Source: Candidatus Hermodarchaeota archaeon
GTDB lineage: Archaea > Asgardarchaeota > Heimdallarchaeia > Hodarchaeales > Hodarchaeaceae
DNA length: 32,000 nucleotides
Reading direction: 5' to 3'
NCBI GenBank assembly: GCA_048886185.1
Contig: JBHLKY010000030.1
Location: forward strand, 1,836 to 33,835
This document shows, one piece after another, positions 6,687 to 26,270 of this stretch; position 1 is the first letter of the stretch, and each line of letters begins with the position of its first letter. A model generated the notes under the pieces. The model was not told the DNA's origin and did not search any database. It worked only from the letters and a program-made list of their open reading frames with translations. Position numbers and translations under genes: made by a program.

Positions 6687-6700
6687 TCTCTTGACCTCTA

Positions 6701-7495: not shown

Positions 7496-7515
7496 CCATT
7501 TTTACTCCTTTGCAT

Positions 7516-8472
7516 CTAGTTCGCCTTATATTTCAGCAAAGATGTTATTTCAGTTGATATTTCAAGACATACTTGTTCAATAGTAGAATAAGATTCAGAA
7601 TTTAATCTGAATGTCGATTCTATTCCAATTAATACTAATTTTGTTCCAATATTAACAAGTTGAGTAATCATTAAAAAGTCTTCAATTCGAAGAACATTTG
7701 TTTTTGCCTCGGGGGCTATATCAAAAGCCTCATATTGGTCTAGCATCTTGATAATTTGAGGTCCGACTTTCTCTTGCCAACTTTGGTTTTTTCCTATTGC
7801 TAAAAGAATCTTATGGCTTGGAGACAATAAAAAAGCTCCAGCGATGCCATATGTCTTCATTTTCTCTTCTAGTCTTTCTTTAATTCGACGTTTATTTACC
7901 AGATCTAGATTTAGTTGTGCTTCCAAAGGTCTATCTTGGGAGAATTTACTAAAATCAGCAGCTTTATTTATTATCTGAGTAAAGATTAGGTTGGTTAATC
8001 GTTGTTCATCAGGCCCTTTCAATGAAACAATATAAGATGGGATTTCATTAGGAAAGAATTGTTGAAAGTTTTTGATGACTGTGTCTTTTATTTTGTTTCT
8101 TTCAACCTCACTAGTTATTAAATGTCCACGGTTTAGTAAAAGAACAACTCGAAAATTTTTGTTTACACTACTAATATCTGCAGTTATCCTTTGAAAATCC
8201 GATGAGATCTCATCTAAAAGTTGATAGGAGATATCGTGTATGTAAATAAGCGTGTTTATTTTCATTAAGATCTTTTCACGAATAGAAGGAAGTAAGCTAG
8301 TAATATAAGTCTCTTCTTTCTTTGAATGAGAGGGATTTAACCAATCATAGTAAAAAACGTTCTGTAATATCTTAAGATTTGGTTCTGTCCGTCCTAACTT
8401 CATCATTTGGCTAAAAAGTAGGTCTTTTCCAGAATGAGATAACCCGGATAATGCGATGAGGTTTTGACGCAA
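7516..8472 (-). CDS. Degenerate (pseudo) small GTPase with C-terminal roadblock-like domain
   Basis: TTG start with GAGGAG SD. G1 GLSHSGKD (D instead of S/T), G3 DWLNP, G4 NRGH. C-terminal domain IAGAFLLSPSHKILL...NVLRIEDFLMITQLV...LVLIG. Confidence 0.65.
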   Translation of the reverse strand: MRQNLIALSGLSHSGKDLLFSQMMKLGRTEPNLKILQNVFYYDWLNPSHSKKEETYITSLLPSIREKILMKINTLIYIHDISYQLLDEISSDFQRITADISSVNKNFRVVLLLNRGHLITSEVERNKIKDTVIKNFQQFFPNEIPSYIVSLKGPDEQRLTNLIFTQIINKAADFSKFSQDRPLEAQLNLDLVNKRRIKERLEEKMKTYGIAGAFLLSPSHKILLAIGKNQSWQEKVGPQIIKMLDQYEAFDIAPEAKTNVLRIEDFLMITQLVNIGTKLVLIGIESTFRLNSESYSTIEQVCLEISTEITSLLKYKAN

Positions 8473-8482
8473 TGTGACTCCT

Positions 8483-9487
8483 CTAAATTGGTGTTTTGAG
8501 CATTGATTCTAGCTGCATGGACAGAAGTTTAACAGTTTCTTCAATCTCTGCTAAATTTCTAGTTTCTAACATAGATTTTTCATCACTGGAGACTAGAATT
8601 AGTAAATGATGTGGTTGTAACTTAGATTTGTACATCATTACTGCTCCTAGCCTTTTTAATTCAGATTTCGATCCAGTGATTAATTTTAGATCTTTTGATT
8701 TATCCAAAAGAGTCAATAGTTGTTGGATTTCACTATCTTCTAACTCGGAGGCATTAATTCTGAAATTGGGATCCTCCAGCGAAATTAGAATGACTTCATC
8801 TAATCGGTTCATAAATTTAAGAGTGTGAAGTACCTGTTGAATAGGTCGAAGGCGAAGCCTTTGTTTAATCGCTTCTAAGTCTTCCTCTTCTTTCATGCTT
8901 TCTACTTCAGGAATAACTTCACTAGCTTCTGCTGTTATCCGTTTAAATGCTTCATGGATCGAATTATCATAAATGGATGTTTGCAAAAATGTTATGTTTT
9001 TGTTTGATGCCGCATCTTGAAACATTTCCATAAGAAATTCCATTCGTTCAGCCCGTTGAGTAAGATCGGGCATGAGATCAGTCTTGTGCAGCAGGACATA
9101 GACAGCAGGTTGTACATCAGACATCTCTTCCAAACGGCTGACACCTTCAACAAAGGCCTTGAGTGAAGCTGGAAATTTATCTGGAGTAGCAATATCACAG
9201 ATGAAAACTAAGACCGCAACATTACTGAAGATGAATGAACTCATACTACTCAAAAAACGTTTTAAAAAAACCTCTTGTCCTCCTAAATCCATAACAGTGA
9301 TGGGCTCGTCTGCAACCTGCTCAATCTGTCGTTCATAATTTAACGTCGCTGCATAATCCTTGGTTTCCTCTGGTGCCTTACCTTCAAAAACAACGTCACG
9401 AATGGATGTTTTTCCCGCCTGCGAGAGTCCTAGTAAGATTATCTTCCGTGCGCTCTGCGTTTTCAGCTGTTTCAAGTAATGACTCAT
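8483..9487 (-). CDS. Rag/Gtr1-like small GTPase with C-terminal roadblock-like domain
   Basis: G1 GLSQAGKTS, G2 YAATLNYE, G3 DLGGQ, G4 HKTD, G5 TSI. Acidic linker, then an alpha/beta C-terminal domain. Confidence 0.9.
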   Translation of the reverse strand: MSHYLKQLKTQSARKIILLGLSQAGKTSIRDVVFEGKAPEETKDYAATLNYERQIEQVADEPITVMDLGGQEVFLKRFLSSMSSFIFSNVAVLVFICDIATPDKFPASLKAFVEGVSRLEEMSDVQPAVYVLLHKTDLMPDLTQRAERMEFLMEMFQDAASNKNITFLQTSIYDNSIHEAFKRITAEASEVIPEVESMKEEEDLEAIKQRLRLRPIQQVLHTLKFMNRLDEVILISLEDPNFRINASELEDSEIQQLLTLLDKSKDLKLITGSKSELKRLGAVMMYKSKLQPHHLLILVSSDEKSMLETRNLAEIEETVKLLSMQLESMLKTPI

Positions 9488-11575: not shown

Positions 11576-11829
11576 AGCTCTCTTTTCCTTTATGAGGTAT
11601 TTGATTCTGATTAGCCTATTAAGTCAATGTATTGGTTTCGTGAACTTAATATTATCTTCTTCTTGCTTGTTTTATTAAGTTTGCATTACACTTCATAATA
11701 CAGTTAAATTTTATCAAAATAAGGAAAATTTAAAATTCTTTGTACCTTAAAGAAAGCAAACGATCTTATTATCCAAATTTTCGCCAAAAAAGTATTAATC
11801 ATGTTAATTTTCAAATTGAGGAGTTAAAC

Positions 11830-12732
11830 ATGAAAATTTCACTTGTTGGACTTAGTGGTTGCGGTAAAACATCAATCTATTTCACTACATTGGGTGGGAT
11901 GGCTCCTATGGAGACCAGTGATTTCGGGCCGACCATTATGTATGAGGTGAAGTCCCATAATTACTTGGGTCTTCAAATATCCCTGTGGGACTTCGGAGGG
12001 CAAGAAAAATATAGGCAATCGTACCTCGAGACACCTAAACTTCTCGCTAACACCACGGTGTTGGTTTTAGTCCTTGATCTCCATCATCCTGAGGATTTTA
12101 AGAAAGCAGACGATTACTTTAGGCAGGTTTATTCCGCTATTAAAGAAAATGGAGGAGATCCTCGTTTAATAATTTTCTTTCATAAATATGATACAGAGCA
12201 ATATCTTAAGGAACAGCTTGAAGAGAATCTCGACAAAGCTAGAGAATTACCATTTGTCCGAGAACTTAATCCTGAATCCTTTGTTACATCTATTTATAGA
12301 CAAGAGGAATTAAGTGAGGTTTTTCGTCAAATCTTGATTTCAGACTTTGATAAATTAAAAAATAGCGTTGAACACGCTCAAAACCAACTCATGAAGCTGA
12401 ATTCAAAGATCATTGTGAGTGATGTGAATGGAAATGTTATTACTCATAGTATCAAGGGTTTTTCAACGGGAATCCAGCTTCGTGAAGATTTGCGTGATTA
12501 TATTCTTTCCTGTAATGTATTACGTGAAAATTTCCTCACAAGTGATTCAGCTTCTTTTTCTGCCATTTCTGATTCAAAGACATTAGAATTGCATATTTTT
12601 AATTTTGTTCTAGCTGTACTCATTATGGTAGATAAAGGGGTAAAAGTTGATCCCCCTGAAGATATCGAAGCTTTGCTAAAAGATATGAAAGTGTTTGCAG
12701 AATTAATCATTGAAGCTAGTAGAGAAGATTAA
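11830..12732 (+). CDS. Rag/Gtr1-like small GTPase with C-terminal roadblock-like domain (start revised from 11740 to ATG 11830)
   Basis: GAGGAG SD precedes ATG 11830 (MKISLVG). G1 GLSGCGKTS, G2 GPTIMYE, G3 DFGGQ, G4 HKYD, G5 TSI. C-terminal KIIVSDVNGNVITHS roadblock-like strand-turn-strand. Confidence 0.88.
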   Translation: MKISLVGLSGCGKTSIYFTTLGGMAPMETSDFGPTIMYEVKSHNYLGLQISLWDFGGQEKYRQSYLETPKLLANTTVLVLVLDLHHPEDFKKADDYFRQVYSAIKENGGDPRLIIFFHKYDTEQYLKEQLEENLDKARELPFVRELNPESFVTSIYRQEELSEVFRQILISDFDKLKNSVEHAQNQLMKLNSKIIVSDVNGNVITHSIKGFSTGIQLREDLRDYILSCNVLRENFLTSDSASFSAISDSKTLELHIFNFVLAVLIMVDKGVKVDPPEDIEALLKDMKVFAELIIEASRED

Positions 12733-13099: not shown

Positions 13100-13585
13100 T
13101 TGATTGTTGAAGAAATAGGGAATACAACCCTTCAAAAGATATTTACATCAAAAAAGAGGAGTCGAAGTAGCTTAATCCCAATTTTACAAGACATACAAAG
13201 TGAATTTGGGTATTTATCTAAAGAAAACATGATTCATATTGGGGAATATATTGGAATGTCATTTAACGAAGTTTATGGGGTTGCTTCATTCTATAAACAA
13301 TTCAAATTTGTTAAATCTGGAAAACATATAATAACTGTATGTTTAGGAACAGCTTGCTTTGTAAAGGGCGGTCAAATACTCGCTGAAACTGTAAGAACAA
13401 AATTAGGTATTAATCCAGATGAAACTACAGAGGATAGGTTATTTAGTTTTGAACGTGTTGCTTGTTTAGGATGTTGTGCCTTATCTCCAGTTGTTCAAAT
13501 TGATGGGGAAGTTTATGGAGAAATGAAACCAGCAAAATTACTTCGAATTATCAATAACATAATTAGGGAAGAAAATAATAAGTAG
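13100..13585 (+). CDS. NuoE/HydC-like [2Fe-2S] subunit
   Basis: TTG start with GGAGG SD. LIPILQDIQ, VYGVASFY, CLGTACFVKG and CLGCCALSP motifs. Confidence 0.95.
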   Translation: MIVEEIGNTTLQKIFTSKKRSRSSLIPILQDIQSEFGYLSKENMIHIGEYIGMSFNEVYGVASFYKQFKFVKSGKHIITVCLGTACFVKGGQILAETVRTKLGINPDETTEDRLFSFERVACLGCCALSPVVQIDGEVYGEMKPAKLLRIINNIIREENNK

Positions 13586-13596
13586 GTAACTGGATA

Positions 13597-15423
13597 ATGA
13601 CCAAAAAAAATTCTTCTCTTAGAACAGTTCTAATTTGCCAAGGAACAGGATGTATCTCATCAAAATCAAATGAGATTAAAGAGGAATTTGAAGAACAGAT
13701 AATTGCGGAGGGTCTAGAAAATGAGGTGAAAGTAGACTTCACTGGTTGTCATGGATTCTGTGCTCAAGGTCCTATTGTGATAATTGAACCAGATGGAATT
13801 TTGTATTGTAAGATTAAAGTGGTAAATGTCAAAAACATTGTTACTTCACATTTGAAAAACATCCGGCCTGTTGAAGAATACTTTTACACCGATCCTAAAT
13901 CTGGAAGGAGAATATCAAAGTATAAAGATATTCCTTTTTATAGTAAACAGACACGAATGATTTTAGGTAACTGCGGACACATTAATCCTGAAAATATTGA
14001 CGATTATTTGCACATTGGTGGTTATTCAGGACTTAAACGAGCATTGAAAACCTCTCCCGAAGAGGTTATTCAAATTATTAAAAATTCTGGTTTACGTGGG
14101 AGAGGAGGCGCAGGTTTCCCAACTGGCATGAAATGGGAATTCTGTCGTAATGCACCTGGAAACGAGAAATACATTATTTGTAATGCAGATGAAGGAGATC
14201 CTGGAGCTTTTATGGATCGTTCAATACTTGAAGCAGATCCACACAGCGTTTTAGAAGGAATGATTATCGGAGCATATGCCATTGGCGCTTCTAAAGGCAT
14301 TATCTATGTTCGTGCTGAATATCCTTTAGCAGTTAAGCGTTTTAGATTTGCTCTTGAAACAGCAAGAAAAAATGGATTTCTTGGAGAAAATATTCTAAAT
14401 AATGGATTTTCATTCGATATTTCCGTTCATGAAGGTGCAGGCGCTTTTGTTTGTGGCGAAGAGACAGCATTGATGGCCTCAATAGAAGGAAACAGAGGTA
14501 ATCCACGACCTAGGCCACCATTTCCAGCAGAGTCTGGCCTTTGGGGTAAACCCACCAATATCAATAATGTAAAGACATGGGCTTCTACTGCGTGGATTTT
14601 TAAAAATAGTTGGGAGAAGTTTCACGCTATTGGTGTTGAACATGCACCTGGTACAGCGATTTTCTCACTAACAGGGAAAGTTAAGAATTTGGGCTTAATA
14701 GAAGTACCTATGGGTATCAGTATAAGAGAAATCGTCTATGAAATAGGTGGTGGTATTTTAGATGATAAGGAATTTAAAGCTGTTCAGACTGGAGGTCCTT
14801 CAGGTGGATGTTTACCAAAAAGTCATTTAGACTCCCCTGTTGATTATGAAAGCATGGCTACTTCTGGTAGTATTATGGGTTCAGGTGGAATGATTGTTCT
14901 TGATGAAACTGATTGTATGGTAAAATTAGCTCATTATTTCATAACATTTACACAAGCTGAGTCTTGTGGGAAATGTGTCCCCTGTCGGATCGGAACAAGA
15001 GCAATGTTGGTTATTCTAGATCGGATTATAAAAGGAGAGGGTGAAGACCGAGACCTCATGCTTTTAGAAGAATTAGCCAATACGGTAAAAATGGGATCAT
15101 TATGTGGGCTTGGCCAAACCGCACCAAATCCCGTATTAACTACATTGAAATATTTTCGTAATGAGTATCAGACCCATATTTTTGAAAAACGTTGTCCTGC
15201 TAAAGATTGTCAAGATCTGATTGAATACGTAATTGATGAAGCTATTTGTAATGGATGTACATTATGTGCCCGCAACTGCCCAATGAAGGTCATCACAGGG
15301 ATTAAAGGAGCTACTCACATGATTGATACAAATAGGTGCATTAGATGTGGTATCTGTTTCAAAAGTTGTCCTAGAAACGCAGTGTACAAAAGGGATCGGT
15401 ATCCTCAGCAGGTGAAAAGATGA
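13597..15423 (+). CDS. HydB-type (NuoF family) FMN/NADH-binding subunit with N-terminal [2Fe-2S] and C-terminal 2x[4Fe-4S] domains
   Basis: CQGTGC...GCHGFC, GRGGAGFPTG, NADEGDPGAFMDR, GAGAFVCGEETAL, ESCGKCVPCRIG, SLCGLGQ, and two CxxCxxCxxxCP motifs. Confidence 0.95.
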   Translation: MTKKNSSLRTVLICQGTGCISSKSNEIKEEFEEQIIAEGLENEVKVDFTGCHGFCAQGPIVIIEPDGILYCKIKVVNVKNIVTSHLKNIRPVEEYFYTDPKSGRRISKYKDIPFYSKQTRMILGNCGHINPENIDDYLHIGGYSGLKRALKTSPEEVIQIIKNSGLRGRGGAGFPTGMKWEFCRNAPGNEKYIICNADEGDPGAFMDRSILEADPHSVLEGMIIGAYAIGASKGIIYVRAEYPLAVKRFRFALETARKNGFLGENILNNGFSFDISVHEGAGAFVCGEETALMASIEGNRGNPRPRPPFPAESGLWGKPTNINNVKTWASTAWIFKNSWEKFHAIGVEHAPGTAIFSLTGKVKNLGLIEVPMGISIREIVYEIGGGILDDKEFKAVQTGGPSGGCLPKSHLDSPVDYESMATSGSIMGSGGMIVLDETDCMVKLAHYFITFTQAESCGKCVPCRIGTRAMLVILDRIIKGEGEDRDLMLLEELANTVKMGSLCGLGQTAPNPVLTTLKYFRNEYQTHIFEKRCPAKDCQDLIEYVIDEAICNGCTLCARNCPMKVITGIKGATHMIDTNRCIRCGICFKSCPRNAVYKRDRYPQQVKR

Positions 15424-17030
15424 CTAAATGGATGACTATCAACGGAAAACGTGTAGTGTTCGAGGAAGGAGAAACAGTACTCGAAGTTGCAACAAAAGCA
15501 GGGATATATATCCCCACTCTCTGTGCGAGACCTGATCTTCCTTCAATAGGTGCATGTCGCCTATGTATTGTAGAAGTCGAAGCTGGTCGGGGATTTTCCA
15601 ATTCTTGTACTTTACCAGCAAGAGAAGGAATGATTGTCAGAACAGAAACACCTAATATCAGAGCGATAAGACGAAACATTTTCCAATTAATTCTTTCGGA
15701 ACATCCTAGCTCTTGTATTGTATGTAATAATCAGGAGGAGTGTGAGGAAGTCCGTCATGGAGAGTACAAGGCGGGTCGAGTGATTGGTTGTTACACATGC
15801 AGTAATAAGGATCGATGTGAAATCAGAGAGCTGGCCGAATACTTACGAATAAAAGAAATCCGATTTCCAAAGTTGTATAAGAATTTGCCATTAGAACGGG
15901 AAGATCCATTTCTTGTTCGAGATTATAATCTCTGTATTCTCTGTGCTCGATGTATTAGAGCGTGTCAGAATGTTTTGGGGCATAGTGCTATCACACTCAC
16001 TAAACGAGGTCATGATACAAAAGTAGGAACATTACTAGAAATCCCTCATCTTGAAAGTGGATGTGTATTTTGTGGGCATTGTATAGATGTTTGTCCGACA
16101 GGAGCATTAACTGCTCGAGGATCTAAGTGGTTTGGTACTCCTGATAAGTCAATAGAAACAACATGCGTTTTATGTTCACATAATTGTCAAATGGTCATCG
16201 ATATAAAATGGGATAAAGTTGTAAATGTTCATCCACCTTATGAGATGTCAGCTCGTCGTGAATATTGTGTTAAGGGCCGTTTTTGCATTCCCGCACTAAT
16301 TAACGGCCGAGATCGTCTTCAATATCCAATGATTAAGCGTACAATCATTAAAGAGGAACTCTTTCCTGCATCTTGGGAAGAAGCCATTAATTATGCTGCA
16401 GAGAATTTGAAAAAGTTTAAACCTGAAGAGATAGGTATTTTTATTTCTCCATTTTTAACAGATGAGGCTGTATTCATACTTAACAAGTTCGCTCTACAAG
16501 TAAGCGAGAATAATATTGCTTATGACGACAAAGCACTCCAAGATTTAGCAGCTCAAGGAATCAAATTATTATATGCAACACAAAGATCCAAAGAACTTCT
16601 TAAAATGAAGGATCTAGAATTCTTAATTCTTCAAGATATTTATTATTCTAACTATTGTGAAATAGCAGGGGTTATTTTTCCAATGACAGCTTTTACTGAA
16701 GAGGAAGGCACAAAAACAGGAGATGAATTCATGAGAAATCCAGTTAGACAGGCAGCTGAACCAGTTGGGCTTGCTCTTCCTAGTTGGGATATTACCAATC
16801 GTTTGGCAAAGGCTATGAACTTAGAAGGATTCTCATATAGCTCACTGAACGATGTTCAGGATGATATTGTGAAAGAAGATCCTATTGAAATCCCATTGGT
16901 TCCAAAATCTTCCCTTGAATACTTAGGAATTCCTTTTGTTGAGAAAGTAAAAGATTTTCAAACTTTTTTTAATGCTAAACGACTAATCCATAAAACAAAA
17001 GGCAAAGGTGAGTTCATTGTCAATTTATAA
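15420..17030 (+). CDS. NuoG/FdhA-like Fe-S subunit with an internally deleted, cofactor-less molybdopterin-oxidoreductase domain
   Basis: IPTLC...GACRLC...SC [2Fe-2S]; HxxxCxxCxxxxxC; CILCARCIRAC and CVFCGHCIDVCP; TTCVLCSHNC...CVKGRF. No H-cluster motifs, no Mo-ligand Cys/Sec segment. 4-nt overlap with the upstream gene. Confidence 0.85.
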   Translation: MTKWMTINGKRVVFEEGETVLEVATKAGIYIPTLCARPDLPSIGACRLCIVEVEAGRGFSNSCTLPAREGMIVRTETPNIRAIRRNIFQLILSEHPSSCIVCNNQEECEEVRHGEYKAGRVIGCYTCSNKDRCEIRELAEYLRIKEIRFPKLYKNLPLEREDPFLVRDYNLCILCARCIRACQNVLGHSAITLTKRGHDTKVGTLLEIPHLESGCVFCGHCIDVCPTGALTARGSKWFGTPDKSIETTCVLCSHNCQMVIDIKWDKVVNVHPPYEMSARREYCVKGRFCIPALINGRDRLQYPMIKRTIIKEELFPASWEEAINYAAENLKKFKPEEIGIFISPFLTDEAVFILNKFALQVSENNIAYDDKALQDLAAQGIKLLYATQRSKELLKMKDLEFLILQDIYYSNYCEIAGVIFPMTAFTEEEGTKTGDEFMRNPVRQAAEPVGLALPSWDITNRLAKAMNLEGFSYSSLNDVQDDIVKEDPIEIPLVPKSSLEYLGIPFVEKVKDFQTFFNAKRLIHKTKGKGEFIVNL

Positions 17031-17904
17031 TATCGTTAAAAAATATGAATGTGTTCCAAACATCCATAAGTTAATCATCTCAGTACCAGAAATAGCTAAA
17101 AAGGCCCAACCAGGGCAATTCGTACTCGTAATGGTAGATGAGAAATCTGAGAGAATTCCATTAACAATTGCTGATTGGGATGTGACTACAGGAACTATTA
17201 CATTATTTGTTCAAGAAGTTGGATTGTCTACAACAAAATTTGCTTTTATGGAAGAAGGAGATTCATTTTTTAGTATTGTGGGCCCCTTAGGAAAACCTGC
17301 CTACCTGGATAAATTTGGAACTGTAGTATTGGGAGGTGGTTGTTTTGGGATTGGAGCTATCTATTCAATAGCTAAAAAGCTCAAGAAATTGGAAAATTAC
17401 GTTATCACTATAATTGAGGCAAGAAATGACTGGCTTTTGTATTTTGAGGATGAATTTCAATCTATAAGTGATGAAGTTATCGTGACAACTAGTGATGGGT
17501 CAAAAGGATCAAAAGGGTATATCTATGATGTTCTTGACAATATGATTACAGAAGGACGGGAAATTGATCATATAAAAGTTATTGGATGTAATGTCATGAT
17601 GAGTAAGGTTTCAGCCCTCACTAAAGAAAAAGGTTCCATTCCAACCTATGCAACTGTCTCAGCAATTATGGTGGATGGTACTGGGATGTGTGGAGCTTGT
17701 CGTTTGACATATGATGGAAAAACAAAATTTGCATGCGTGGATGGCCCAGAGTTCAATGCACACAAAATTGATTGGGAGGAACTAATACAAATCCGAAATA
17801 CAACTTATATTCAGGAGGAAACCCTTGCTTTCCAAACTCATTCCCCACAATGTCTATCTCTAAAGAGATTTGCAGAAATAAAAGATGAAGAGGAATTATT
17901 TTGA
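17008..17904 (+). CDS. nfnA: NfnA/SudB-like FAD/[2Fe-2S] subunit (PyrK family)
   Basis: AQPGQFV...ERIPLTIAD, GPLG, MVDGTGMCGACR and CVDGPEF motifs; GTG start overlapping the upstream gene. Confidence 0.9.
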   Translation: MSSLSIYNIVKKYECVPNIHKLIISVPEIAKKAQPGQFVLVMVDEKSERIPLTIADWDVTTGTITLFVQEVGLSTTKFAFMEEGDSFFSIVGPLGKPAYLDKFGTVVLGGGCFGIGAIYSIAKKLKKLENYVITIIEARNDWLLYFEDEFQSISDEVIVTTSDGSKGSKGYIYDVLDNMITEGREIDHIKVIGCNVMMSKVSALTKEKGSIPTYATVSAIMVDGTGMCGACRLTYDGKTKFACVDGPEFNAHKIDWEELIQIRNTTYIQEETLAFQTHSPQCLSLKRFAEIKDEEELF

Positions 17905-19634
17905 AGGCAAAGGAAAGAATGCAAATTTCTAGGGTGTCTATGCCAAGTCAACCTCCAGAGGTACGTGTTAAGAACTTCCGTGAGGTTCCTTATGGTTACA
18001 CAGAAGAAATGGCTGTAGAAGAAGCCAACCGTTGTCTTGGATGTAAAACACCAAAATGTATCGAGGGGTGTCCTGTTCGTGTACCAATTCCAGAGTTTAT
18101 CACATTAATACAAGAAAGAAAGTTTGCAGAAGCAGCATGGAAAATTAAAGAAACAAATGTCCTCCCAGCAATATGTGGACGTGTATGTCCTCAAGAGGCA
18201 CAATGTGAGGGAAAGTGTGTTCGTACGAAAAAGGGCGAATCTGTTGCTGTTGGTAACCTTGAACGATTTGTTGCTGATTATGAACGGTTAAAAGATATTG
18301 TTCCTAAAATAAATATCGTGCAAAAAAATGGGAAAAAAGTGGCAGTTATAGGGAGTGGTCCCTCGGGGTTGACTGTTGCAGGAGATTTAATAAAATTAGG
18401 ATATGAGGTAATCATTTTTGAAGCGTTTCACCTTGGTGGTGGCGTTCTTGTTTATGGAATTCCGGAATTTCGTTTACCTAAAGCAGTTGTGGAATATGAG
18501 ATACAGAATCTTAGCAAACTAGGAGTACAAATCTCTTATAATCATGTAGTTGGCCGTATTAAAACCATTGGGGAACTATTTGCTAATGATGATTTTGATG
18601 CTGTTTATATTGGTGTTGGAGCTGGTTTACCAGTTTTTATGAATATTCCAGGGGAAAACCTTATTGGGGTCTATTCTGCCAATGAATATCTTACACGCTC
18701 AAATTTAATGAAATCATATCTTTTCCCCGAGTATAATACTCCTTTAGTAAGTGGAAAAGATGTTGTGGTCGTGGGTGGAGGGAATACTGCAATGGATGCT
18801 TCTAGAACCGCTATACGATTAGGGGCAGCTAATGTTTACCTTGTCTATCGTCGCTCAAGAGAACAGATGCCTGCGCGAACATTGGAGGTACATCACGCTG
18901 AAGAAGAGGGAATTCAATTCAAACTTTTATCTAATCCTGTTGAGATCATTGGTGACGAAAAAGGTCGAGTTAAAGCAGTTACTTGTCAAAGATATCGTCT
19001 TGGAGAACCAGATAAATCTGGAAGAGCTCGTCCTATACCAATAGAAGGTGAGTTCTTTGAGCTAAAAACTGATTTAGTCATTATAGCTGTCGGAACGGGG
19101 GCGAATCCTCTAATCACAGCCACAACACCAGATCTAGAAACTAATAAGTGGGGGTATCTCGTAGCAGACGAGATGGGCCGTACTAGTAAACCATTTGTAT
19201 ATGCAGGTGGCGACATTGTTACAGGAACAGCAACTGTAATTTCAGCAATGGGGGCGGGTCGTCGAGCAGCTCAAGCAATACATGAGGATCTCTTTCCAGT
19301 GGTCAAGGAAGAACCCGAAAGAATTCGAATAGTTTCCGAGATTATACAAGTAAAAGAAGCCATAATACATCCTGAATCTACAACAATGAAAATTATATTA
19401 GCCAATACATCAGGAAGAGATCTCAAGAATCTAAAAATTGTTGTTTCACATCTCTTTGATTTGTTTGAAGAACCCTTATTTAATACATCTGTCTCAAGCT
19501 GGCCATCAAATGAAGAGCTGGAACTTGATTGTCCCCGAATTCATAAAAATGAAAAAGAATATCTTTTATCCATAAGAGATTTAGACAGAAAATTGTTATC
19601 AAAGCGACTTGTTGCTGAAGAACTAATGAAGTAA
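17901..19634 (+). CDS. nfnB: NfnB/SudA (GltD family) flavoprotein with an extra ~105-aa C-terminal domain
   Basis: EANRCLGC...CIEGCP, CGRVCPQEAQCE, GSGPSG, YGIPEFRLP, GGGNTAMD, YRR and AGGDIVTG. The core ends near HEDL; an extra domain follows. Confidence 0.93.
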   Translation: MKAKERMQISRVSMPSQPPEVRVKNFREVPYGYTEEMAVEEANRCLGCKTPKCIEGCPVRVPIPEFITLIQERKFAEAAWKIKETNVLPAICGRVCPQEAQCEGKCVRTKKGESVAVGNLERFVADYERLKDIVPKINIVQKNGKKVAVIGSGPSGLTVAGDLIKLGYEVIIFEAFHLGGGVLVYGIPEFRLPKAVVEYEIQNLSKLGVQISYNHVVGRIKTIGELFANDDFDAVYIGVGAGLPVFMNIPGENLIGVYSANEYLTRSNLMKSYLFPEYNTPLVSGKDVVVVGGGNTAMDASRTAIRLGAANVYLVYRRSREQMPARTLEVHHAEEEGIQFKLLSNPVEIIGDEKGRVKAVTCQRYRLGEPDKSGRARPIPIEGEFFELKTDLVIIAVGTGANPLITATTPDLETNKWGYLVADEMGRTSKPFVYAGGDIVTGTATVISAMGAGRRAAQAIHEDLFPVVKEEPERIRIVSEIIQVKEAIIHPESTTMKIILANTSGRDLKNLKIVVSHLFDLFEEPLFNTSVSSWPSNEELELDCPRIHKNEKEYLLSIRDLDRKLLSKRLVAEELMK

Positions 19635-19757
19635 GTAATACAAGTTGGTTATTAGTGGTTATAAGGGAAACTGTTTAGAGACAACCGATGACTTTAATTT
19701 ATTTTGATCTTTTTTGCCACTTATAGATAGAATGTTTGAATCATTTATTTTAGTTAC

Positions 19758-20177
19758 TTAATCTTCTTTTGATTTTAGTGAGAGGGATTCTAAGGAGTTG
19801 AAAGCGGCTAAAATATCGTAGGATGTTATTATCCCTACCAAATTATTGCTAACGGGATTTATTACAGGAATTCTTTTTATTCTATATTTAGACATTAGCT
19901 TTAACGCGTCTTTAACGGTTTCTTCTGAAGAAATTGTAATAAGGTTTTTTGTTGCAATGTCCCCTGCTTTGACTGTACAAGGATCATTACAATTTAGCAC
20001 AACTCTTGCGATAATATTTTGTTTTGTTATTATTCCAAGATTTTTTTGATCTTTATAAACCAACACTGAACCTACTTTTTTTTCGACCATTAATTGAGCT
20101 ACCTTCTCAACACTTTCATTGGGATTAACAGCTACAATCTCTTTCGTCATAAAATCTTTTACTTTAGTTCTATTCAC
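19758..20177 (-). CDS. Stand-alone CBS-pair protein
   Basis: KVKDFMTKEIV, VGSVLV, GIIT, IKRIPV and LVGIITSYDIL: two CBS repeats; GTG start. Confidence 0.93.
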   Translation of the reverse strand: MNRTKVKDFMTKEIVAVNPNESVEKVAQLMVEKKVGSVLVYKDQKNLGIITKQNIIARVVLNCNDPCTVKAGDIATKNLITISSEETVKDALKLMSKYRIKRIPVINPVSNNLVGIITSYDILAAFNSLESLSLKSKED

Positions 20178-20188
20178 GACATAACTTC

Positions 20189-21217
20189 CTATCCTTGAAT
20201 TCTTTTTAGCATTATTGTTTCATTTTCGTCTTCAATTTTAAGGAAATAGATCATACCAGTTCCTTCAGAGGGTTCAAATTCAAAGGAAATGATTTCTTTT
20301 GGGGCCCATTTTCTTATTTCTGAAATAAGGACATCTTTTCCGAAAAATCCATGTGATTCATATATTTTGAGAAGAACATTTTCTAAAATGGTTGAACTAA
20401 TGTTACGAACTGTGATACGAATGATTTTTTTGTCTTTAGGGGATTCAACTTGAATAATTTTTACACGTTTTGGTTCTGGTTTTAAGATTTCCTCTTTTTT
20501 ACTATCTGAAATCTCCTGTTGTTTTATTGTAGGTATTAAAAATCTTAATTTTTCTGGCCTTTTAGGTACTGAAGGGATACTAGGTTTCTGAAATTGATAG
20601 CTTTCTGAATTTGGTTTTTGCTCCAGTTCATTTTCTTTTAATTGTGCTTTAAGCTTTGTAATGGGGATTTTCGGAATTAAAGAATGATATTTACTCTCAA
20701 GGAGTTCTCTGATGTGTTTAGACCTTTCTATGACTTCTGGCTCTTTACTTTCCTCAAGTATATCTTCAATGAGGAAACGCAATCTTAAACTGACGTGATA
20801 ATTTTCGAGGGTTATTTTAAATTGGTACAATATTTCCTGAGCGATAAAAGAAACCGATGAAGGGGCCTTGACGATCAAAATAAATCTATCAAGTTGCCAT
20901 TTGGCAGATTCCATTCCTGAGCGTCTTTTAATTCTACGTGTTTCACAAAAAGATATTGTAGCACAGTAAATAACATCTCCTATCTCAAGATCGATGCTGG
21001 TAAACTTATCTGTATCTAGGAATTTTTCCTGGTGCCACCATACTGGATGAATGGATAATATTTGTTTTTCATTTTCATCGGTCAATAATTCTTCTGGATA
21101 TCCAAATAGTGGGACATGGCCTCTAATTTCGTCAAAAAAATAGAGAAAGAATCCATACGAATTGTCGCTGGCTAAAGAAACAATATTTTTTGTTGAGGGG
21201 ATATCCCCGTTACTCAT
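20189..21217 (-). CDS. Longin/uDENN-like N-terminal domain plus C-terminal beta-sandwich-like domain
   Basis: GFFLYFFDEIRGHVPLFGYPE start. Colinear similarity to 21697..22644 in both domains. Low-complexity Pro/Lys/Glu linker. AAGGAG SD. Confidence 0.65.
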   Translation of the reverse strand: MSNGDIPSTKNIVSLASDNSYGFFLYFFDEIRGHVPLFGYPEELLTDENEKQILSIHPVWWHQEKFLDTDKFTSIDLEIGDVIYCATISFCETRRIKRRSGMESAKWQLDRFILIVKAPSSVSFIAQEILYQFKITLENYHVSLRLRFLIEDILEESKEPEVIERSKHIRELLESKYHSLIPKIPITKLKAQLKENELEQKPNSESYQFQKPSIPSVPKRPEKLRFLIPTIKQQEISDSKKEEILKPEPKRVKIIQVESPKDKKIIRITVRNISSTILENVLLKIYESHGFFGKDVLISEIRKWAPKEIISFEFEPSEGTGMIYFLKIEDENETIMLKRIQG

Positions 21218-21250
21218 GACTACGCCTTTCTCCTTTATTCTAAAATCTAA

Positions 21251-21454
21251 TCAATCTAAGCTGATTTTAAAGGATTTCTCTCTATTTATCACATTTACAC
21301 AAAATTTCGATTTTAATCTTTTTTGTTTTTCATGAGAGATTATGGAGAAATCATCCGACAATAATATGGGAGTTAATGAAAAAGGGATCTGATGACAATA
21401 ATCAGGTAAGATTGACAATAAAAGCTCTTTTATTTGCTTATTGTCTAAAATCAA
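21251..21454 (-). CDS. Possible small hypothetical protein, 67 aa
   Basis: TTG-start ORF preceded by AAGGGG, filling part of the gap between two co-oriented paralogs. No motif. Confidence 0.3.
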   Translation of the reverse strand: MILDNKQIKELLLSILPDYCHQIPFSLTPILLSDDFSIISHEKQKRLKSKFCVNVINREKSFKISLD

Positions 21455-21696
21455 CCCCTTTTTTAATCCTTTTCTACATAAAAGGCATATAATGATTTAA
21501 TAGTCTTCTATAATGCTAGAGAAATATTTTTCATTTCTTCAGAGTAAAATTACGACAAAAAGGGGTAACCTCTTTACTCTATTAAACGTTTTTTCAAACA
21601 ATTTCTAGTATCATATCTTGATCATTAAAGGAACTTCAAACAATGCAAAGAATATAAATTTCTAAAGATGATTTTATCATTGGAGATATACTTAAA

Positions 21697-22644
21697 TTAA
21701 CTAGCATTAGTAGAAGCAATCTCAAGGGACTTTATGTCTATTGTTGTATTTCTACTAGTAATCTTTATCAAATACTTCCCAATTACGTCAGATTTGGAAA
21801 ATTCTAGGATTATATCTTCTTTTAAAGGCCATTCTTCAAGTTTATGCTCCCAAATAGTTTCACTAAAAAACTCTGTTCTTCTTGACACATGAATCCTTAT
21901 ATCATATAAATTTTCACTCTGATTAATTAATACTACCATTAATCTATTCTTATTTTCCTCTGTTGGTAAGACTCTCATGGTTATTTTTTGCTTAAACAAA
22001 TCCTGAGCACAAAGACTTGTCTCTACTGGAATCATGGAGGAATTGACTCGACTTGGTATTATCTCTGTGCTAAAAGGCTCTATATTTTTATTAATTCCAT
22101 AAACAAATTTTTTCCAAATATTTTTAAGGGACAATTCGATTTCTACGGCTTTTTTTAGTAATTCATCGTGTTCTCGTTTTTTGATCGGATTTAATGCCAA
22201 TTTTTCTCGTTGATATAATATCTCAAGATCTGAACCAATATCCGAATTTATTGTTGTTTTTAAATCAACAAATGCTTTAACGGGTATAGGATCACTATCT
22301 TTCCATTTTTTGATGACGATTCCATAGAGAGGGTGATCAATTGTTGACAACGATCCCTCTTGGGAATCTTCTTGAAGCTGAATAGCTGAGTAAACAAATT
22401 CTGAAAATTTTAAATCAATTCGAAAAGGAACATTTTCAATTTTCCACACACAATGAGTTTTTAGAATATTAATTTCATTTTGATTTTTTTTCAATTTTGA
22501 TGGGTATGAAAAGAGGATACGAAGGCCATGAGTAGTATCAAAAGAACACAAAAAAAATCCTATTAGGCCAACTTTTGAGTCAAAAGTTTGCTTATCGGTT
22601 GCAGGTTCAATATCAGTATCAAATACGGGATCGATATTCATCAT
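21697..22644 (-). CDS. Longin/uDENN-like N-terminal domain plus C-terminal beta-sandwich-like domain, paralog of 20189..21217
   Basis: GFFLCSFDTTHGLRILFSYP...NEINILKTHCVW matches GFFLYFFDEIRGHVPLFGYP...NEKQILSIHPVW. AAGGAG SD. Confidence 0.65.
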   Translation of the reverse strand: MMNIDPVFDTDIEPATDKQTFDSKVGLIGFFLCSFDTTHGLRILFSYPSKLKKNQNEINILKTHCVWKIENVPFRIDLKFSEFVYSAIQLQEDSQEGSLSTIDHPLYGIVIKKWKDSDPIPVKAFVDLKTTINSDIGSDLEILYQREKLALNPIKKREHDELLKKAVEIELSLKNIWKKFVYGINKNIEPFSTEIIPSRVNSSMIPVETSLCAQDLFKQKITMRVLPTEENKNRLMVVLINQSENLYDIRIHVSRRTEFFSETIWEHKLEEWPLKEDIILEFSKSDVIGKYLIKITSRNTTIDIKSLEIASTNAS

Positions 22645-22917: not shown

Positions 22918-24837
22918 ATGAAACAAAATTTTTTAGTATATTCTCATTTACTCACATCAGTAGAAACAATTCATCAAATAACTTTGGAACGTTTGGAGAA
23001 GAACATTTTGAGTACACAAGTGTGGGATCTCATTGTAGTGGGAGGTGGGCCTGCTGGTCTTTCTGGTGCTATTCGTGCTGCAGAATTAGGCCTTCATGTC
23101 CTTGTCCTCGAGGCACGTTCTGGAGTCGCTACCGCAGGTAGTATGGTTGTGGATGGGTATCCTGGCTTTTTTAGTATTACTCGCCAAGAACTACTAGATA
23201 AGATGGCTAAACAGGCGAAATATCATGCGACCATTAAGTATGCAGAGAAAGTTAGTAAACTTGAACTTCACGATCCTGTAAAAAGAGTTTACACACAGGT
23301 GACCAAAGGAGAGTTCTTCACCGAAGAGTTCATATATGACAGTAGGGCTATATTAATCGCTACTGGGGTTCAACCAAGGAAACTTGATATTCCCGGTGAA
23401 GGAAAATTCTGGAATCGTGGTGTATATTACTCTCTTCCAGACGAAGATTACTCGGAAAAAAATGTTGCTATTATAGGGCATACAGCTTGGGCGGTTAGAA
23501 ATGCACTTCATTATGATGCCATGGGCGCTCATGTTTACCTGATTACAAATAAGGAGGCAATTGATGTTCATCCTGCACTCATGAGAAGATTAAATGAGAG
23601 CTTTATTGAAGTTTTATACTCACATGAAATATTGTATTTTGAAGGTACAAATAAGTTAACTAAAACACGTCTTAAAAGTAGAGATGGAAAACAGTTTTCT
23701 ATCCTTACTAACATGGTATTGATCTTAAGTAGCAAGAGTACAAATCGTGAATTATTCCTAGATGCTGGTTTAGAGACTACACCTCAAGGAAATATTATTG
23801 TTTCATCACCCAATCAGAACACAAATATCCCTGGTGTTTTTGCTGCCGGTAGTGCTATAAGAGGTGATTCAGTTGTGGGTGTGGGGGCTGCTGAAGGTAT
23901 AAAAGCTGCAGAAGAAATATCTAAATATTTAGCTAGAATAGATGAAGAAAAGGAGGCTGAAGAACAACAAGAAAAGCCATCTCCTGTTCCTAGGTTCGTT
24001 GAAGGCAAATGTGTGATAGTTGAGAAAGAAGATCTTTCTCCAGAAATAGTCAAGTGGGTAGTTGAGGCACCTTTAATTGCAAAGAAAACTCAACCAGGCC
24101 AATTTGTGATTCTCAGAGTAGATGCAAACGGAGAACGAATTCCTTTAACTATAGCAGATAATGACAAAAACGCTGGGACGATAACTTTGATTTTTCAAAA
24201 AGTCGGAAAAAGTACTAAATTAATGGGAACCATGAAAACAGGTGATCATATTCTTAATCTTCTAGGTCCCTTGGGAAAACCCGTTGAAATTGAGAAATGG
24301 GGTACGGTGGCTGTTTTAGGTGGTGGTTGTGGTGTTGCCCCAGTACTACCTAAAGCTAAAGCACTTAAAGAGCGGGGGAATTATGTTGTGAGCATTATTT
24401 CAGCTAGAACTTCATCACTCTTGATTTGTCGTCAAGAGATGCAAGAAGCAAGTGATGAAATTCACATTGCTACTGATGATGGAACCTTAGGTCATCATGG
24501 GTTTGGACTTGATATCTTAAAACGTTTTGTGGAAGAAGGAAGACAGATAGATCATGTTGTAGCAGTTGGTCCTATTCCTATGATGAAATTCACTTGTGCT
24601 TTCACTAAAGAACATAACATTCCAACAACTGTTAGTTTAGCACCTATCATGGTAGATGGGACTGGAATGTGTGGCTCTTGTCGCGTGACTGTGGGTGGTG
24701 AGATTAAGTTTGCCTGTGTTGATGGTCCAAACTTTGATGGATTAAAAGTGGATTTTGAAGAATTAACCCTCAGATCAAGGGCTTATCTCTACGAGGAGCG
24801 AATTTCAACAGAAAAAATGGCTCGTGAGAAATCTTAG
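22918..24837 (+). CDS. nfnA: Fusion of a TrxB-like FAD oxidoreductase domain lacking CxxC with an NfnA/SudB domain (start may be TTG 23008)
   Basis: N-half: DLIVVGGGPAG, ILIATG, IPGE, TNIPGVFAAG. C-half: QPGQFV...ERIPLTIAD, GGGCGVAP, GPIPMM, MVDGTGMCGSCR, CVDGPNF. GGAG SD lies upstream of in-frame TTG 23008. Confidence 0.88.
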   Translation: MKQNFLVYSHLLTSVETIHQITLERLEKNILSTQVWDLIVVGGGPAGLSGAIRAAELGLHVLVLEARSGVATAGSMVVDGYPGFFSITRQELLDKMAKQAKYHATIKYAEKVSKLELHDPVKRVYTQVTKGEFFTEEFIYDSRAILIATGVQPRKLDIPGEGKFWNRGVYYSLPDEDYSEKNVAIIGHTAWAVRNALHYDAMGAHVYLITNKEAIDVHPALMRRLNESFIEVLYSHEILYFEGTNKLTKTRLKSRDGKQFSILTNMVLILSSKSTNRELFLDAGLETTPQGNIIVSSPNQNTNIPGVFAAGSAIRGDSVVGVGAAEGIKAAEEISKYLARIDEEKEAEEQQEKPSPVPRFVEGKCVIVEKEDLSPEIVKWVVEAPLIAKKTQPGQFVILRVDANGERIPLTIADNDKNAGTITLIFQKVGKSTKLMGTMKTGDHILNLLGPLGKPVEIEKWGTVAVLGGGCGVAPVLPKAKALKERGNYVVSIISARTSSLLICRQEMQEASDEIHIATDDGTLGHHGFGLDILKRFVEEGRQIDHVVAVGPIPMMKFTCAFTKEHNIPTTVSLAPIMVDGTGMCGSCRVTVGGEIKFACVDGPNFDGLKVDFEELTLRSRAYLYEERISTEKMAREKS

Positions 24838-24851
24838 GAGGAACTAGAAAT

Positions 24852-26270
24852 ATGTCAACAAAAAAATCAAAAAGACAAAGAGTTCACATGCAAGCCCAAG
24901 ACCCTGCCGAGCGAATTCGAAACTTTGAAGAGGTAACTTTAGGGTACACAGAGAGTGAGGCGATAGAGGAAGCTTCTCGCTGTCTCCAGTGTAAACGCCC
25001 ACGCTGTATCCAAGGATGCCCTGTTAGTGTGCGAATACCCGAGTTCATTTTAAAGTTAAGGGAGGGTGATATTGATACGGCAAAAGAAATAATTTTATCT
25101 ACAAATAGTCTACCTGCCATCACGGGACGAGTTTGTCCGCAAGAAAATCAATGTCAGGAGTTCTGCATTCACCCTAATGCAATAAGTATCGGTGCACTCG
25201 AAAGATTTGTTGCTGATCATGGAAAACGACCTGAAGTCTCCTCTCGTGAGAAATATCCAACTAAGGTTGCAGTAGTTGGATCTGGTCCATCGGGATTGAC
25301 TTGTGCAGCTGAGTTAGCAAATCTTGGTCATGAAGTAACCGTTTATGAGGCACTACATGAGCTTGGTGGAGTTCTGAGATATGGTATTCCTGAATTTAGA
25401 ATGCCAAAGAAGATAGTGAATGAAGAAATAGATTATGTAAGAAGCTTAGGAGTTAAATTAGATACAGATATATTGATTGGAAAGACATTAACAGTCGATG
25501 AGCTTCTAAATGAAAAAGGATTCAATGCTGTATATATTGCAGCGGGTGCAGGAACCCCCAACTTTCTTGGTATCCTAGGGGAGACCTTAAGAGGTGTTTT
25601 TTCCGCAAATGAATTTTTAACTCGCGTTAATCTTCTAAAAGGGTATGAATTTCCAGAATATGACACTCCTGTAACTGTTGGAGAAAAAGTTGCTGTCGTT
25701 GGGGCAGGAAACGTAGCAATGGACTGTGCGCGAACAGCACTCCGTTTAGGAGCTCGTGAAGTCGATATTATTTATCGTCGCTCTGAAGGGGAAATACCCG
25801 CAAGATTAGAAGAAATTATCCACGCGAAAGAAGAGGGAGTTGTCATAGGGGAGCTAACATCTCCGATTGAAATGCTTGGTAATAAAAAAGGAATGATAAT
25901 TGGACTAAAGTGTATTCAAATGACTTTAGGACAATTGGATGAGTCTGGTCGTCGAAGACCAATCCCCATCCCTAACTCCGATTTTATTTTCCCTGTGGAT
26001 ACTGTGATAGTAGCCATTGGTCAGCGACCCAACCAGTTAATAGCTCAAACCACTTCAGAGCTAGAAACTACAAAATGGGGAACTATTGTACATGAAAAAG
26101 AAACAGGAAAGACTACTAAGGAACGTGTATATACTGGAGGCGATGTTGCTACTGGAGCAGCAACTGTTATTTTAGCTATGGAAGCTGGTCGAAATGCTGC
26201 TAAAGCAATTCATAAGATGATTCTTGAGAAAGATTTGGAAATTCAAACTGAGTTAATACAAACCGAATAA
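24852..26270 (+). CDS. nfnB: NfnB/SudA (GltD family) flavoprotein, second copy without the extra C-terminal domain
   Basis: EASRCLQC...CIQGCP, GRVCPQENQC, GSGPSG, YGIPEFRMP, GAGNVAMD, YRR, TGGDVATG; AGGAGG SD. Confidence 0.95.
   Translation: MSTKKSKRQRVHMQAQDPAERIRNFEEVTLGYTESEAIEEASRCLQCKRPRCIQGCPVSVRIPEFILKLREGDIDTAKEIILSTNSLPAITGRVCPQENQCQEFCIHPNAISIGALERFVADHGKRPEVSSREKYPTKVAVVGSGPSGLTCAAELANLGHEVTVYEALHELGGVLRYGIPEFRMPKKIVNEEIDYVRSLGVKLDTDILIGKTLTVDELLNEKGFNAVYIAAGAGTPNFLGILGETLRGVFSANEFLTRVNLLKGYEFPEYDTPVTVGEKVAVVGAGNVAMDCARTALRLGAREVDIIYRRSEGEIPARLEEIIHAKEEGVVIGELTSPIEMLGNKKGMIIGLKCIQMTLGQLDESGRRRPIPIPNSDFIFPVDTVIVAIGQRPNQLIAQTTSELETTKWGTIVHEKETGKTTKERVYTGGDVATGAATVILAMEAGRNAAKAIHKMILEKDLEIQTELIQTE

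Follow-up and report, generated by a model that had tools for sequence, protein, structure and literature searches.

The tail-bearing genes and their layout

The subject of this work is a domain of about 95 residues that closes three proteins encoded in a stretch of 32,000 nucleotides from a Candidatus Hermodarchaeota archaeon (assembly GCA_048886185.1, contig JBHLKY010000030.1). The whole stretch is called the window in the following text, and all positions refer to it. The three carriers are NfnB-1, which is assigned to the NfnB/GltD family of iron-sulfur flavoenzyme subunits, and two neighbouring longin-like proteins, here called longin-1 and longin-2. An earlier note on this DNA had claimed that one domain is appended to all three proteins. 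The open reading frames (ORFs), coordinates, and peptides quoted in that note agreed with our data, and the peptides are present in the translations.

NfnB-1 closes a co-directional run of NuoE-like, NuoF-like, NuoG-like, and NfnA genes, and the gene of a Rag-like GTPase stands before this run. On the opposite strand, converging on NfnB-1, lie longin-2, then longin-1, and then a gene with a CBS pair. Beyond the longin genes, at 22918-26270, follow a TrxR-like::NfnA fusion (the double colon marks a fusion) and NfnB-2, a second NfnB paralogue. The positions of the features and the basis of their assignment are given in Table 1.

Table 1. Features of the window, with position, strand, and basis of assignment (aa, amino acids; HMM, hidden Markov model; TM, template modelling score)
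Feature	Position	Strand	Basis or remark
Rag/Gtr1-like GTPase, first gene of the NuoEFG-NfnAB operon	11740-12732	+	Pfam Gtr1_RagA (PF04670), 74.2 bits vs cut-off 22
NuoE-like, NuoF-like, NuoG-like, and NfnA genes, directly upstream of NfnB-1, co-directional	13100-17904	+	Pfam, NCBIfam
NfnA ORF, overlaps the NfnB-1 start	17008-17904	+	PRK06222
NfnB-1	17901-19634	+	577 aa, ORF list
NfnB-1, NfnB/GltD-type catalytic core (Fer4_20 and FAD/NAD(P) domains) with short linker	17901-19337	+	PF14691 4.5e-42, PF07992 1.9e-40, TIGR01316
NfnB-1, Ig-like tail, aa 480-577 plus stop	19338-19634	+	longin-tail-only HMM E 2.4e-20, hhalign 99.1%, AlphaFold2 model
CBS-pair gene, 11 nt downstream of longin-1, co-directional	19758-20177	-	Pfam CBS 2.6e-30
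longin-1	20189-21217	-	342 aa
longin-1, Ig-like tail, aa 250-342 plus stop	20189-20470	-	BLASTP vs NfnB tail E 5e-6; tail HMM E 2e-27
longin-1, NPRL2/NPRL3-like predicted longin domain (~aa 1-190) and K/E/P-rich linker with KLRFLIP motif	20471-21217	-	ESM Atlas structure search TM 0.59-0.62; family alignment
longin-2	21697-22644	-	315 aa
longin-2, Ig-like tail, aa 219-315 plus stop	21697-21990	-	BLASTP vs NfnB tail E 1e-4; tail HMM E 9e-26
longin-2, N-terminal longin-like domain, paralogue of longin-1 without Arg/Lys-rich loop	21991-22644	-	BLASTP vs longin-1 N-terminus E 9e-9; longinN HMM E 9e-56
NfnB-2, tail-less paralogue, internal negative control	24852-26270	+	472 aa; Pfam core ends at residue 446

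Homology of the tails and reality of the fusion

The C-termini of NfnB-1, longin-1, and longin-2 are homologous copies of one domain of about 95 residues. With the NfnB-1 tail as query, pairwise BLASTP gave E-values of 5e-6 for the longin-1 tail and 1e-4 for the longin-2 tail. An HMM built from longin-type tails alone (n=29) detected the NfnB-1 tail with 70 bits (E 2.4e-20, Z=5000), and the comparison of NfnB tails with longin tails by hhalign resulted in a probability of 99.1% (E 5.7e-19). The three copies of the window share just 15-21% identity. In the three-way alignment N23, S25, L29, F43, W55, E59, Y75, and I79 are invariant, and these positions agree with the pattern listed in the earlier note (N-x-S, L-x-N/D, (F)F, W-P/A-x-x-E, Y-hydrophobic-hydrophobic-x-I). 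The note had named a lack of profile homology as the outcome that would speak against a common domain; this was checked, and homology was found. NfnB-2, which the note had described as free of the tail, is not matched by the tail HMM, and its protein ends directly after the catalytic core. The window's own genome (4.8 Mb, 96% complete) contains these three copies, all within 2.7 kb, and no others.

A single open frame of 577 codons crosses the junction between the NfnB-1 core and the tail. The same fusion was observed in four other proteins from independent assemblies, with tail identities of 57-83%, and the closest named record is a metagenome-assembled genome labelled Candidatus Hodarchaeota (83% identity). 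An NfnB frame of 581-588 aa that ends in the tail domain is present in about ten congeneric genomes, and two loci (L008 and L026) repeat the whole NuoEFG-NfnAB::tail/CBS/longin arrangement. As the fusion occurs in four proteins of independent assemblies and in about ten congeneric genomes, a misassembly near position 19300, or absence of the fusion from relatives, which the note had also raised, is excluded. The probability that the NfnB fusion is an assembly or gene-calling artefact is practically negligible.

Fold of the tail

The AlphaFold2 model of the NfnB-1 tail was made with an alignment of 70 sequences (A3). It reached a predicted local distance difference test (pLDDT) value of 91.7 and a predicted TM score of 0.82, and showed a seven-strand β-sandwich with a short terminal helix. 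Against ESM Atlas clusters the model gave TM values of 0.88-0.92 for Promethearchaeota longin::tail clusters, 0.79 for an FrhB-family cluster (299 members), and 0.71-0.76 for clusters bearing NPCBM_assoc (NEW3), CARDB, or DUF11. Against solved structures, VIA-align found 52 chains at Z>=8 (top Z 9.8, root-mean-square deviation 2.1-2.9, 79-97 aligned residues), all of them immunoglobulin (Ig)-like domains. These matches form a flat series which includes DUF3244, GH2 and GH3 accessory domains, transglutaminase C-domains, ASF1, the BBS1 GAE domain, and FlaF/G. Foldseek matched the model to ASF1 with a TM of 0.61-0.64.

None of the three tails had a Pfam match at E<=1 or an NCBIfam match, and a search of the PDB sequences with the tail profile returned nothing significant. 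The tail profile reached giant DUF11/DUF7507 repeat proteins at a whole-sequence E of about 2e-6, with single stretches at just E 4e-4 to 8e-3, and hhalign of the tail against DUF11 repeats resulted in a probability of 28.7%. On the side of the adaptin/GAE appendages, PF23304 had a sub-threshold match (E 0.015) to the tail of one arrestin-like protein. From the model, the tail is a generic Ig-like (E-set-like) β-sandwich, nearest to models of CARDB/DUF11/NEW3 type, and the sequence link to DUF11 repeats is only suggestive.

The earlier note had likened the tail to Ig-like and adaptin-appendage sandwiches. The Ig-like part of this proposal holds in the predicted structure (pLDDT 91.7, seven strands, Z 9.8). 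The specific relation to the adaptin ear or TRAPP was dropped because such matches do not stand above generic Ig-like domains; the BBS1 GAE domain, for instance, sits at Z 8.7 inside the flat list (Z 8-9.8). The C-terminal domain of NPRL2 was also considered as the identity of the tail and was rejected, as the tail is all-β and has no NPR2 profile match. A lead towards RhoGDI-like lipid binding came from a weak Foldseek row (TM 0.49, E 1.6e-3).

Compared with the CARDB/DUF11/NPCBM_assoc (NEW3) repeats of prokaryotic surface proteins, the tail has the same type of β-sandwich in the models and shares the strand pattern h-x-h-x-h-x-N-x-(S/G)-x(3)-L-x-N-h-x-h. The tail is a single C-terminal copy on predicted cytosolic proteins, whereas those domains are tandem repeats on secreted proteins, and its FE turn and W-x-P-x-x-E motif are specific to it. 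The adaptin/GGA appendages (GAE, ear) and the BBS1 GAE domain resemble it as small β-sandwiches that end a flexible linker and could act as a recruitment platform; this resemblance has no sequence-level support for the tail and would be a functional analogy at most. In the AlphaFold2 model, the FE turn and the W-x-P-x-x-E loop are located at one end of the sandwich. The N, the FE turn, and the W-x-P-x-x-E positions are conserved in the tails of all four carrier classes described below.

Distribution and carrier classes

A profile search of 1.8 billion representative proteins detected 68 proteins with the domain. Most of them are 310-390 aa long and have the same N-terminal family as longin-1 and longin-2, and about 30 are of the longin type. 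Four are FrhB/FdhB-like iron-sulfur flavoproteins with a C-terminal tail (P0024, P0035, P0042, and P0070). In one further protein, P0044 (L009:792-2717), a longin::tail is fused to four CBS domains, which is a Rosetta-stone hint that CBS and longin::tail cooperate.

A sample of 301 Asgard genomes contained 102 with the domain, and its carriage by family was all-or-none: 20/20 in f1, 64/68 in f14, 5/5 in f12, 6/6 in f23, and 3/3 in f18, against 0/76 in f11, 0/29 in f3, and 0/19 in f17. Exactly three copies (E<=1e-5) were present in 59 of the 102 carrier genomes, where the counts per genome are lower bounds for more divergent copies. The carriers fall into four classes, namely NfnB, FrhB-like, longin, and arrestin-like proteins, and the redox carrier is usually the FrhB-like flavoprotein. 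The tail is a previously unannotated domain, found so far in certain Asgard lineages only. A literature search found no published description of the domain, the NfnB fusion, or the FrhB link, in line with the statement in the earlier note that no description of the fusion was known; bioRxiv 10.1101/2020.10.19.343400 and PMC12290439 do not mention a C-terminal tail domain or an NfnB/FrhB link.

Gene context and exchange of the redox carrier

Gene context was analysed in 29 loci from at least seven families, annotated with local HMMs. In all loci examined with a redox carrier of the tail, except one (L035), an orthologue of the Rag-like GTPase adjoins the redox::tail gene or operon. These orthologues (E 1e-87 to 1e-195) stand beside FrhB::tail or NfnB::tail in L005, L008, L009, L011-L015, L023-L026, and L030-L034. 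The domain marks this Rag-like-GTPase gene set lineage-wide, in the 102 of 301 genomes given above, a wider picture than the note had drawn from the window. In the window, the PF04670 match of the GTPase spans residues 32-224 of 330 and is followed by a C-terminal extension.

Outside the window's genus the core order is FrhB-like::tail, Rag-like GTPase orthologue (E 1e-87 to 1e-107), and a 375-405-aa protein with the tail. This cassette was found in L005, L009, L011-L015, and L030-L034. The CBS and longin::tail genes lie a few kb off the core, and farther in f14. The 375-405-aa protein is encoded at or near the Rag-like GTPase gene, mostly directly after it (L005:10492-11640, L009:4494-5648, L012:2905-4032, L014:13423-14592, L015:13761-14918, L031-L034). 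Its N-terminal 290 residues had a sub-threshold match to nearly the whole Arrestin_C profile (PF02752) in five of five members, with a best E of 0.0027, and the name arrestin-like is used here as a lead. A divergent longin was also considered for this protein and was rejected (hhalign of the N-terminus against the longin family, probability 0.2%). Four tandem genes with a V4R domain follow the FrhB-Rag-arrestin-like cassette in L005 (11747-17018); V4R is considered related to TRAPPC3/Bet3.

Within the genus, the slot between the Rag-like gene and the CBS-longinA-longinB genes is filled in one of two ways. It holds FrhB::tail in L023-L025 (about 11 genomes) or the five-gene operon NuoEFG-NfnA-NfnB::tail in the window, L008, and L026 (about ten genomes), and NfnB::tail and FrhB::tail never occur together in one genome of the genus. 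In four FrhB-type genomes searched, no NfnB-1 orthologue was found, the best match (52-53% identity) being the NfnB-2 orthologue; a search of four NfnB-type genomes gave no FrhB::tail orthologue. Because this exchange is mutually exclusive, the two unrelated flavoenzymes are interchangeable provided that the tail is present. L008 and L023-L026 also have the CBS pair at this position beside the longin gene. No arrestin-like carrier was detected in the window's genus (Hodarchaeota-labelled). Compared with the FrhB::tail-Rag-arrestin-like::tail module of the other families, the genus has the same tail domain and the same Rag-like orthologue; it differs in having two longin carriers, and about half of its species swap FrhB for NuoEFG-NfnAB.

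Some further features of the locus were observed. The TrxR-like::NfnA fusion and the tail-less NfnB-2 flank the longin genes in L023, L025, and L026 as well, whichever redox carrier has the tail; in L024 the fusion gene alone of this pair was seen, partly matched. Three more genes of Rag-like GTPase paralogues lie upstream in the window (5757-9487), and the same trio is present at the locus in the congeneric L023 and L025.

N-terminal halves of longin-1 and longin-2

The N-termini of longin-1 and longin-2 belong to one family (BLASTP between them E 9e-9), with a conserved start h-h-L-x-Y/F-F-D-E-x-x-G-H-x-x-L-x-x-Y-P and an I-H-x-I-W motif. The longin-1 type has an S-x-R-x-K-x-R-x-G loop in which R95, K97, and G101 are nearly invariant, and the longin-2 type is without this loop. 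The difference is reminiscent of catalytic and non-catalytic subunits in longin heterodimers that act as GTPase-activating proteins (GAPs). In an ESM Atlas structure search, residues 1-190 of longin-1 gave TM values by query of 0.59-0.62 to NPRL2, NPRL3, Npr2p, and Heimdall folliculin-like clusters, where both sides of the comparison are predicted models and the Atlas model has a pLDDT of just 0.60. The language-model neighbour cluster carries PF06218 on 19% of its members. The whole longin-2 protein gave TM values of 0.38-0.40 to NPR2 clusters, and both longin-like proteins fall in Promethearchaeota-only clusters of the Atlas. Single-sequence AlphaFold2 of longin-1 gave a pLDDT of 43 and was unusable. 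PF06218 (NPR2), PF03666 (NPR3), and PF11704 (Folliculin) had no match at E<=1 in longin-1, longin-2, or 30 family members; the longin-N profile found no GATOR1 or FLCN chain and nothing significant in the PDB, and NCBIfam gave none. By predicted structure (TM 0.59-0.62), the N-terminal halves look like longins of the NPRL2/NPRL3/folliculin type, so the longin-like nature that the note had ascribed to the two neighbours stands at this level.

NPRL2-like longins in Asgards have already been reported (bioRxiv 10.1101/2020.10.19.343400; PMC12290439), and a GP motif after strand 1 together with a catalytic arginine finger has been given as the signature of GAP longins (PMC12290439). At the position of the GP motif the Gly is invariant in the present family, and the next residue is H or L instead of P. 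The layout resembles the regulation of eukaryotic Rag/Gtr GTPases by longin GAP complexes (GATOR1 NPRL2-NPRL3, FLCN-FNIP) in that a Gtr1/RagA GTPase is encoded with two paralogous longin-like proteins, and the Arg/Lys-rich loop of one paralogue echoes the catalytic/non-catalytic GAP heterodimers. It differs in several respects. DEPDC5, a DENN domain, and the C-terminal domain of NPRL2 are all missing here; the C-terminal domain of the longins is an Ig-like sandwich which is also carried by a redox flavoenzyme; and the first strand is followed by G-H or G-L, in contrast to G-P in GAP longins. Any GAP activity of the present proteins is putative. The linker of longin-1 (20471-20650, about aa 190-250) contains a K-L-R-F-(S/L)-I-P motif that is conserved in at least ten family members and could be a linear docking peptide.

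Enzyme cores of NfnB-1 and NfnB-2

The NfnB-1 core scored 590.3 bits against the TIGR01316 cut-off of 471.75, with residues 18-463 matched, and its Fer4_20 and pyridine-nucleotide-disulfide-oxidoreductase core stops at about residue 464. By these profile matches NfnB-1 is a predicted member of the NfnB/GltD small-subunit family, which has Fer4_20 with two [4Fe-4S] sites and FAD/NAD(P) Rossmann domains. The adjacent NfnA gene scored 339.5 bits against the PRK06222 cut-off of 220 (NCBIfam) and encodes the predicted FAD/[2Fe-2S] DHOD-B-like partner expected of an NfnAB-type complex. The NuoE/F/G-like and NfnA proteins matched 2Fe-2S_thioredx, Complex1_51K/NADH_4Fe-4S, Fer2_4/Molybdopterin, and DHODB_Fe-S_bind in Pfam. 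The presence of NuoE/NuoF/NuoG-like and NfnA/NfnB genes in one operon (13100-19634) is a combination of HydBC-type with Nfn-type modules; the NuoEFG-NfnAB operon has the same order in L008 and L026 and is apparently absent from the FrhB-type congeners.

With the NfnAB/SudAB/GltD family of NADPH-dependent iron-sulfur flavoenzymes and the Stn-type (HydBC-linked) transhydrogenases, the window shares the family matches of NfnB-1 and NfnA and the NuoE/F/G-like genes in the same operon. A C-terminal Ig-like domain was not found in any described NfnB/GltD member, in which NfnB-1 differs from them. NfnB-2 and the matched bacterial relatives stop at the core, unlike NfnB-1.

Evolution of the tails

A maximum-likelihood tree of 52 tails grouped them by carrier class across genomes and not by genome. 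Support was 100/99 for the arrestin-like clade, 100/99 for the NfnB clade, and 100/98-99 for the genus-specific longin-A and longin-B clades. Because the tree groups the copies by carrier class, the tails are old paralogues that co-diverged with their carriers and not recent local copies. The best tree joins the NfnB tails to the FrhB tails with weak support (54/73), and among the non-NfnB sequences of alignment A3 an FrhB tail (38% identity) comes nearest to the NfnB-1 tail. In the approximately unbiased (AU) test, grouping of the NfnB tail with either longin tail was not rejected (p-AU 0.36 and 0.24). The simplest view takes the NfnB fusion as the derived state, because NfnB::tail occurs in only part of one genus and FrhB::tail has a wide distribution. 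At the weak support of this node, an FrhB tail and a longin tail are both compatible with the tree as possible source of the NfnB tail.

Interpretation of the shared tail

With moderate confidence we regard the tail as a module for docking or co-localisation, through which a redox enzyme is coupled to regulators of a Rag GTPase, and we infer its binding from comparative genomics. A tail on a flexible linker would bring the flavoenzyme and the longin regulators, which may be like GAPs or guanine nucleotide exchange factors, into one assembly or onto a common partner, and the adjacent Rag-like GTPase would be the prime candidate for this partner. In this way the flavoenzyme could sense the state of the NAD(P)H/ferredoxin (or F420) pool and pass it on to the GTPase switch, and the CBS protein could do likewise for adenine nucleotides. 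The proteins that share the tail as a label form a small, fixed set, in most cases three per genome: one iron-sulfur flavoenzyme, one or two NPRL2-like longins, and, outside the genus, the arrestin-like protein. The conservation of the same positions in four carrier classes agrees no less well with a shared partner or ligand than with contacts between tails.

Several observations weigh against the docking reading. Some carrier genomes have one, two, four, or five copies. In f14, the largest family, longin::tail is often 13-55 kb away from the FrhB-Rag-X cassette or on another contig, which makes the link by neighbourhood weaker in this family. Family f18 carries only an FrhB::tail copy, and the 20 kb fetched for L035, the sole f18 locus examined, showed no Rag-like gene. 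The conserved motifs of the tail could be purely structural. The longin identity comes from the likeness of predicted structures of moderate quality, with no support from sequence profiles, and for the predicted NfnAB-NuoEFG complex bifurcation or any sensing is putative only.

The same residues in four carrier classes would suit one common ligand better than class-specific heterotypic contacts, and this point, like the flexible linkers before the tail, also fits an alternative in which the tail is directed to a non-protein or structural target (membrane lipid, envelope, cytoskeletal filament, or compartment) and the carriers are co-located without a defined complex. Among Ig-like sandwiches of similar shape are many domains associated with surfaces or carbohydrates, as well as the lipid-binding RhoGDI (Foldseek TM 0.49, E 1.6e-3). 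Such targeting is unlikely in our view, as all carriers are predicted cytosolic enzymes or regulators and domains that bind lipids or sugars do not match better than dozens of unrelated Ig-like domains do. It also leaves the near-constant adjacency of the Rag-like gene unexplained, unless the cue for localisation is the GTPase; the targeting proposal would then merge with docking.

The tail might otherwise act within each carrier as an intramolecular regulatory or small-molecule-sensing domain, with the clustering of the genes resulting from co-regulation. A ligand pocket could be formed by the FE turn together with the W-x-P-x-x-E loop, which share one end of the sandwich, and in P0044 the tail is followed by fused CBS domains, a type of domain that senses ligands. 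Four structurally unrelated carriers and long low-complexity linkers are atypical of such a regulator, and small Ig-like sandwiches rarely bind metabolites, so that we consider this improbable. It is still harder to credit that the tail is a neutral or merely stabilising appendage spread among neighbours by local duplication or recombination. The three window copies do lie within 2.7 kb, Ig-like domains are highly mobile in evolution, and by the AU test (p 0.36, 0.24) the NfnB tail could have come from one of the adjacent longin tails. Against this, the copies are just 15-21% identical and form old carrier-specific clades across families, and the domain is kept in 102 genomes with a modal count of three. 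The tail is also retained when the redox carrier is swapped, and a neutral domain would often be lost.

Beyond the docking reading itself, a wider proposal can be made, which we hold only tentatively and regard as doubtful at present. It describes an Asgard Rag-GTPase module, present also in a Hodarchaeota-labelled lineage, in which a GATOR1-like longin pair, the arrestin-like protein, and the redox flavoenzyme would be physically assembled through the Ig-like docking domain, and in which the switch would read the NAD(P)H/ferredoxin/F420 and adenylate state. With such a module, eukaryotic Rag/GATOR nutrient sensing would have had a redox-sensing forerunner in prokaryotes, whose sensor would be exchangeable if it carries the tail.

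Significance

Asgard genomes encode dozens of small GTPases and of longin and roadblock proteins. The pairing of GTPases with their regulators has been described as difficult to infer from the arrangement of genes in the genome, since these genes as a rule do not form operons (PMC10933270). In the present case, a rare domain in common and the conservation of the neighbourhood pick out one Rag-like GTPase, the candidate longin regulators, a CBS sensor, and a metabolic flavoenzyme as one set. The NfnB fusion and the double-longin arrangement of the window are a genus-level variant of a wider FrhB/Rag/arrestin/longin module, for which no publication was found, and the tail domain is an unannotated family that merits its own profile. 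The natural swap between FrhB and NfnB with the tail kept is a ready-made experiment on the purpose of the tail. The set provides a concrete, testable system for the role of Rag-type switches before eukaryotes, and it suggests that the input of such a switch was the redox and energy state instead of amino acids.

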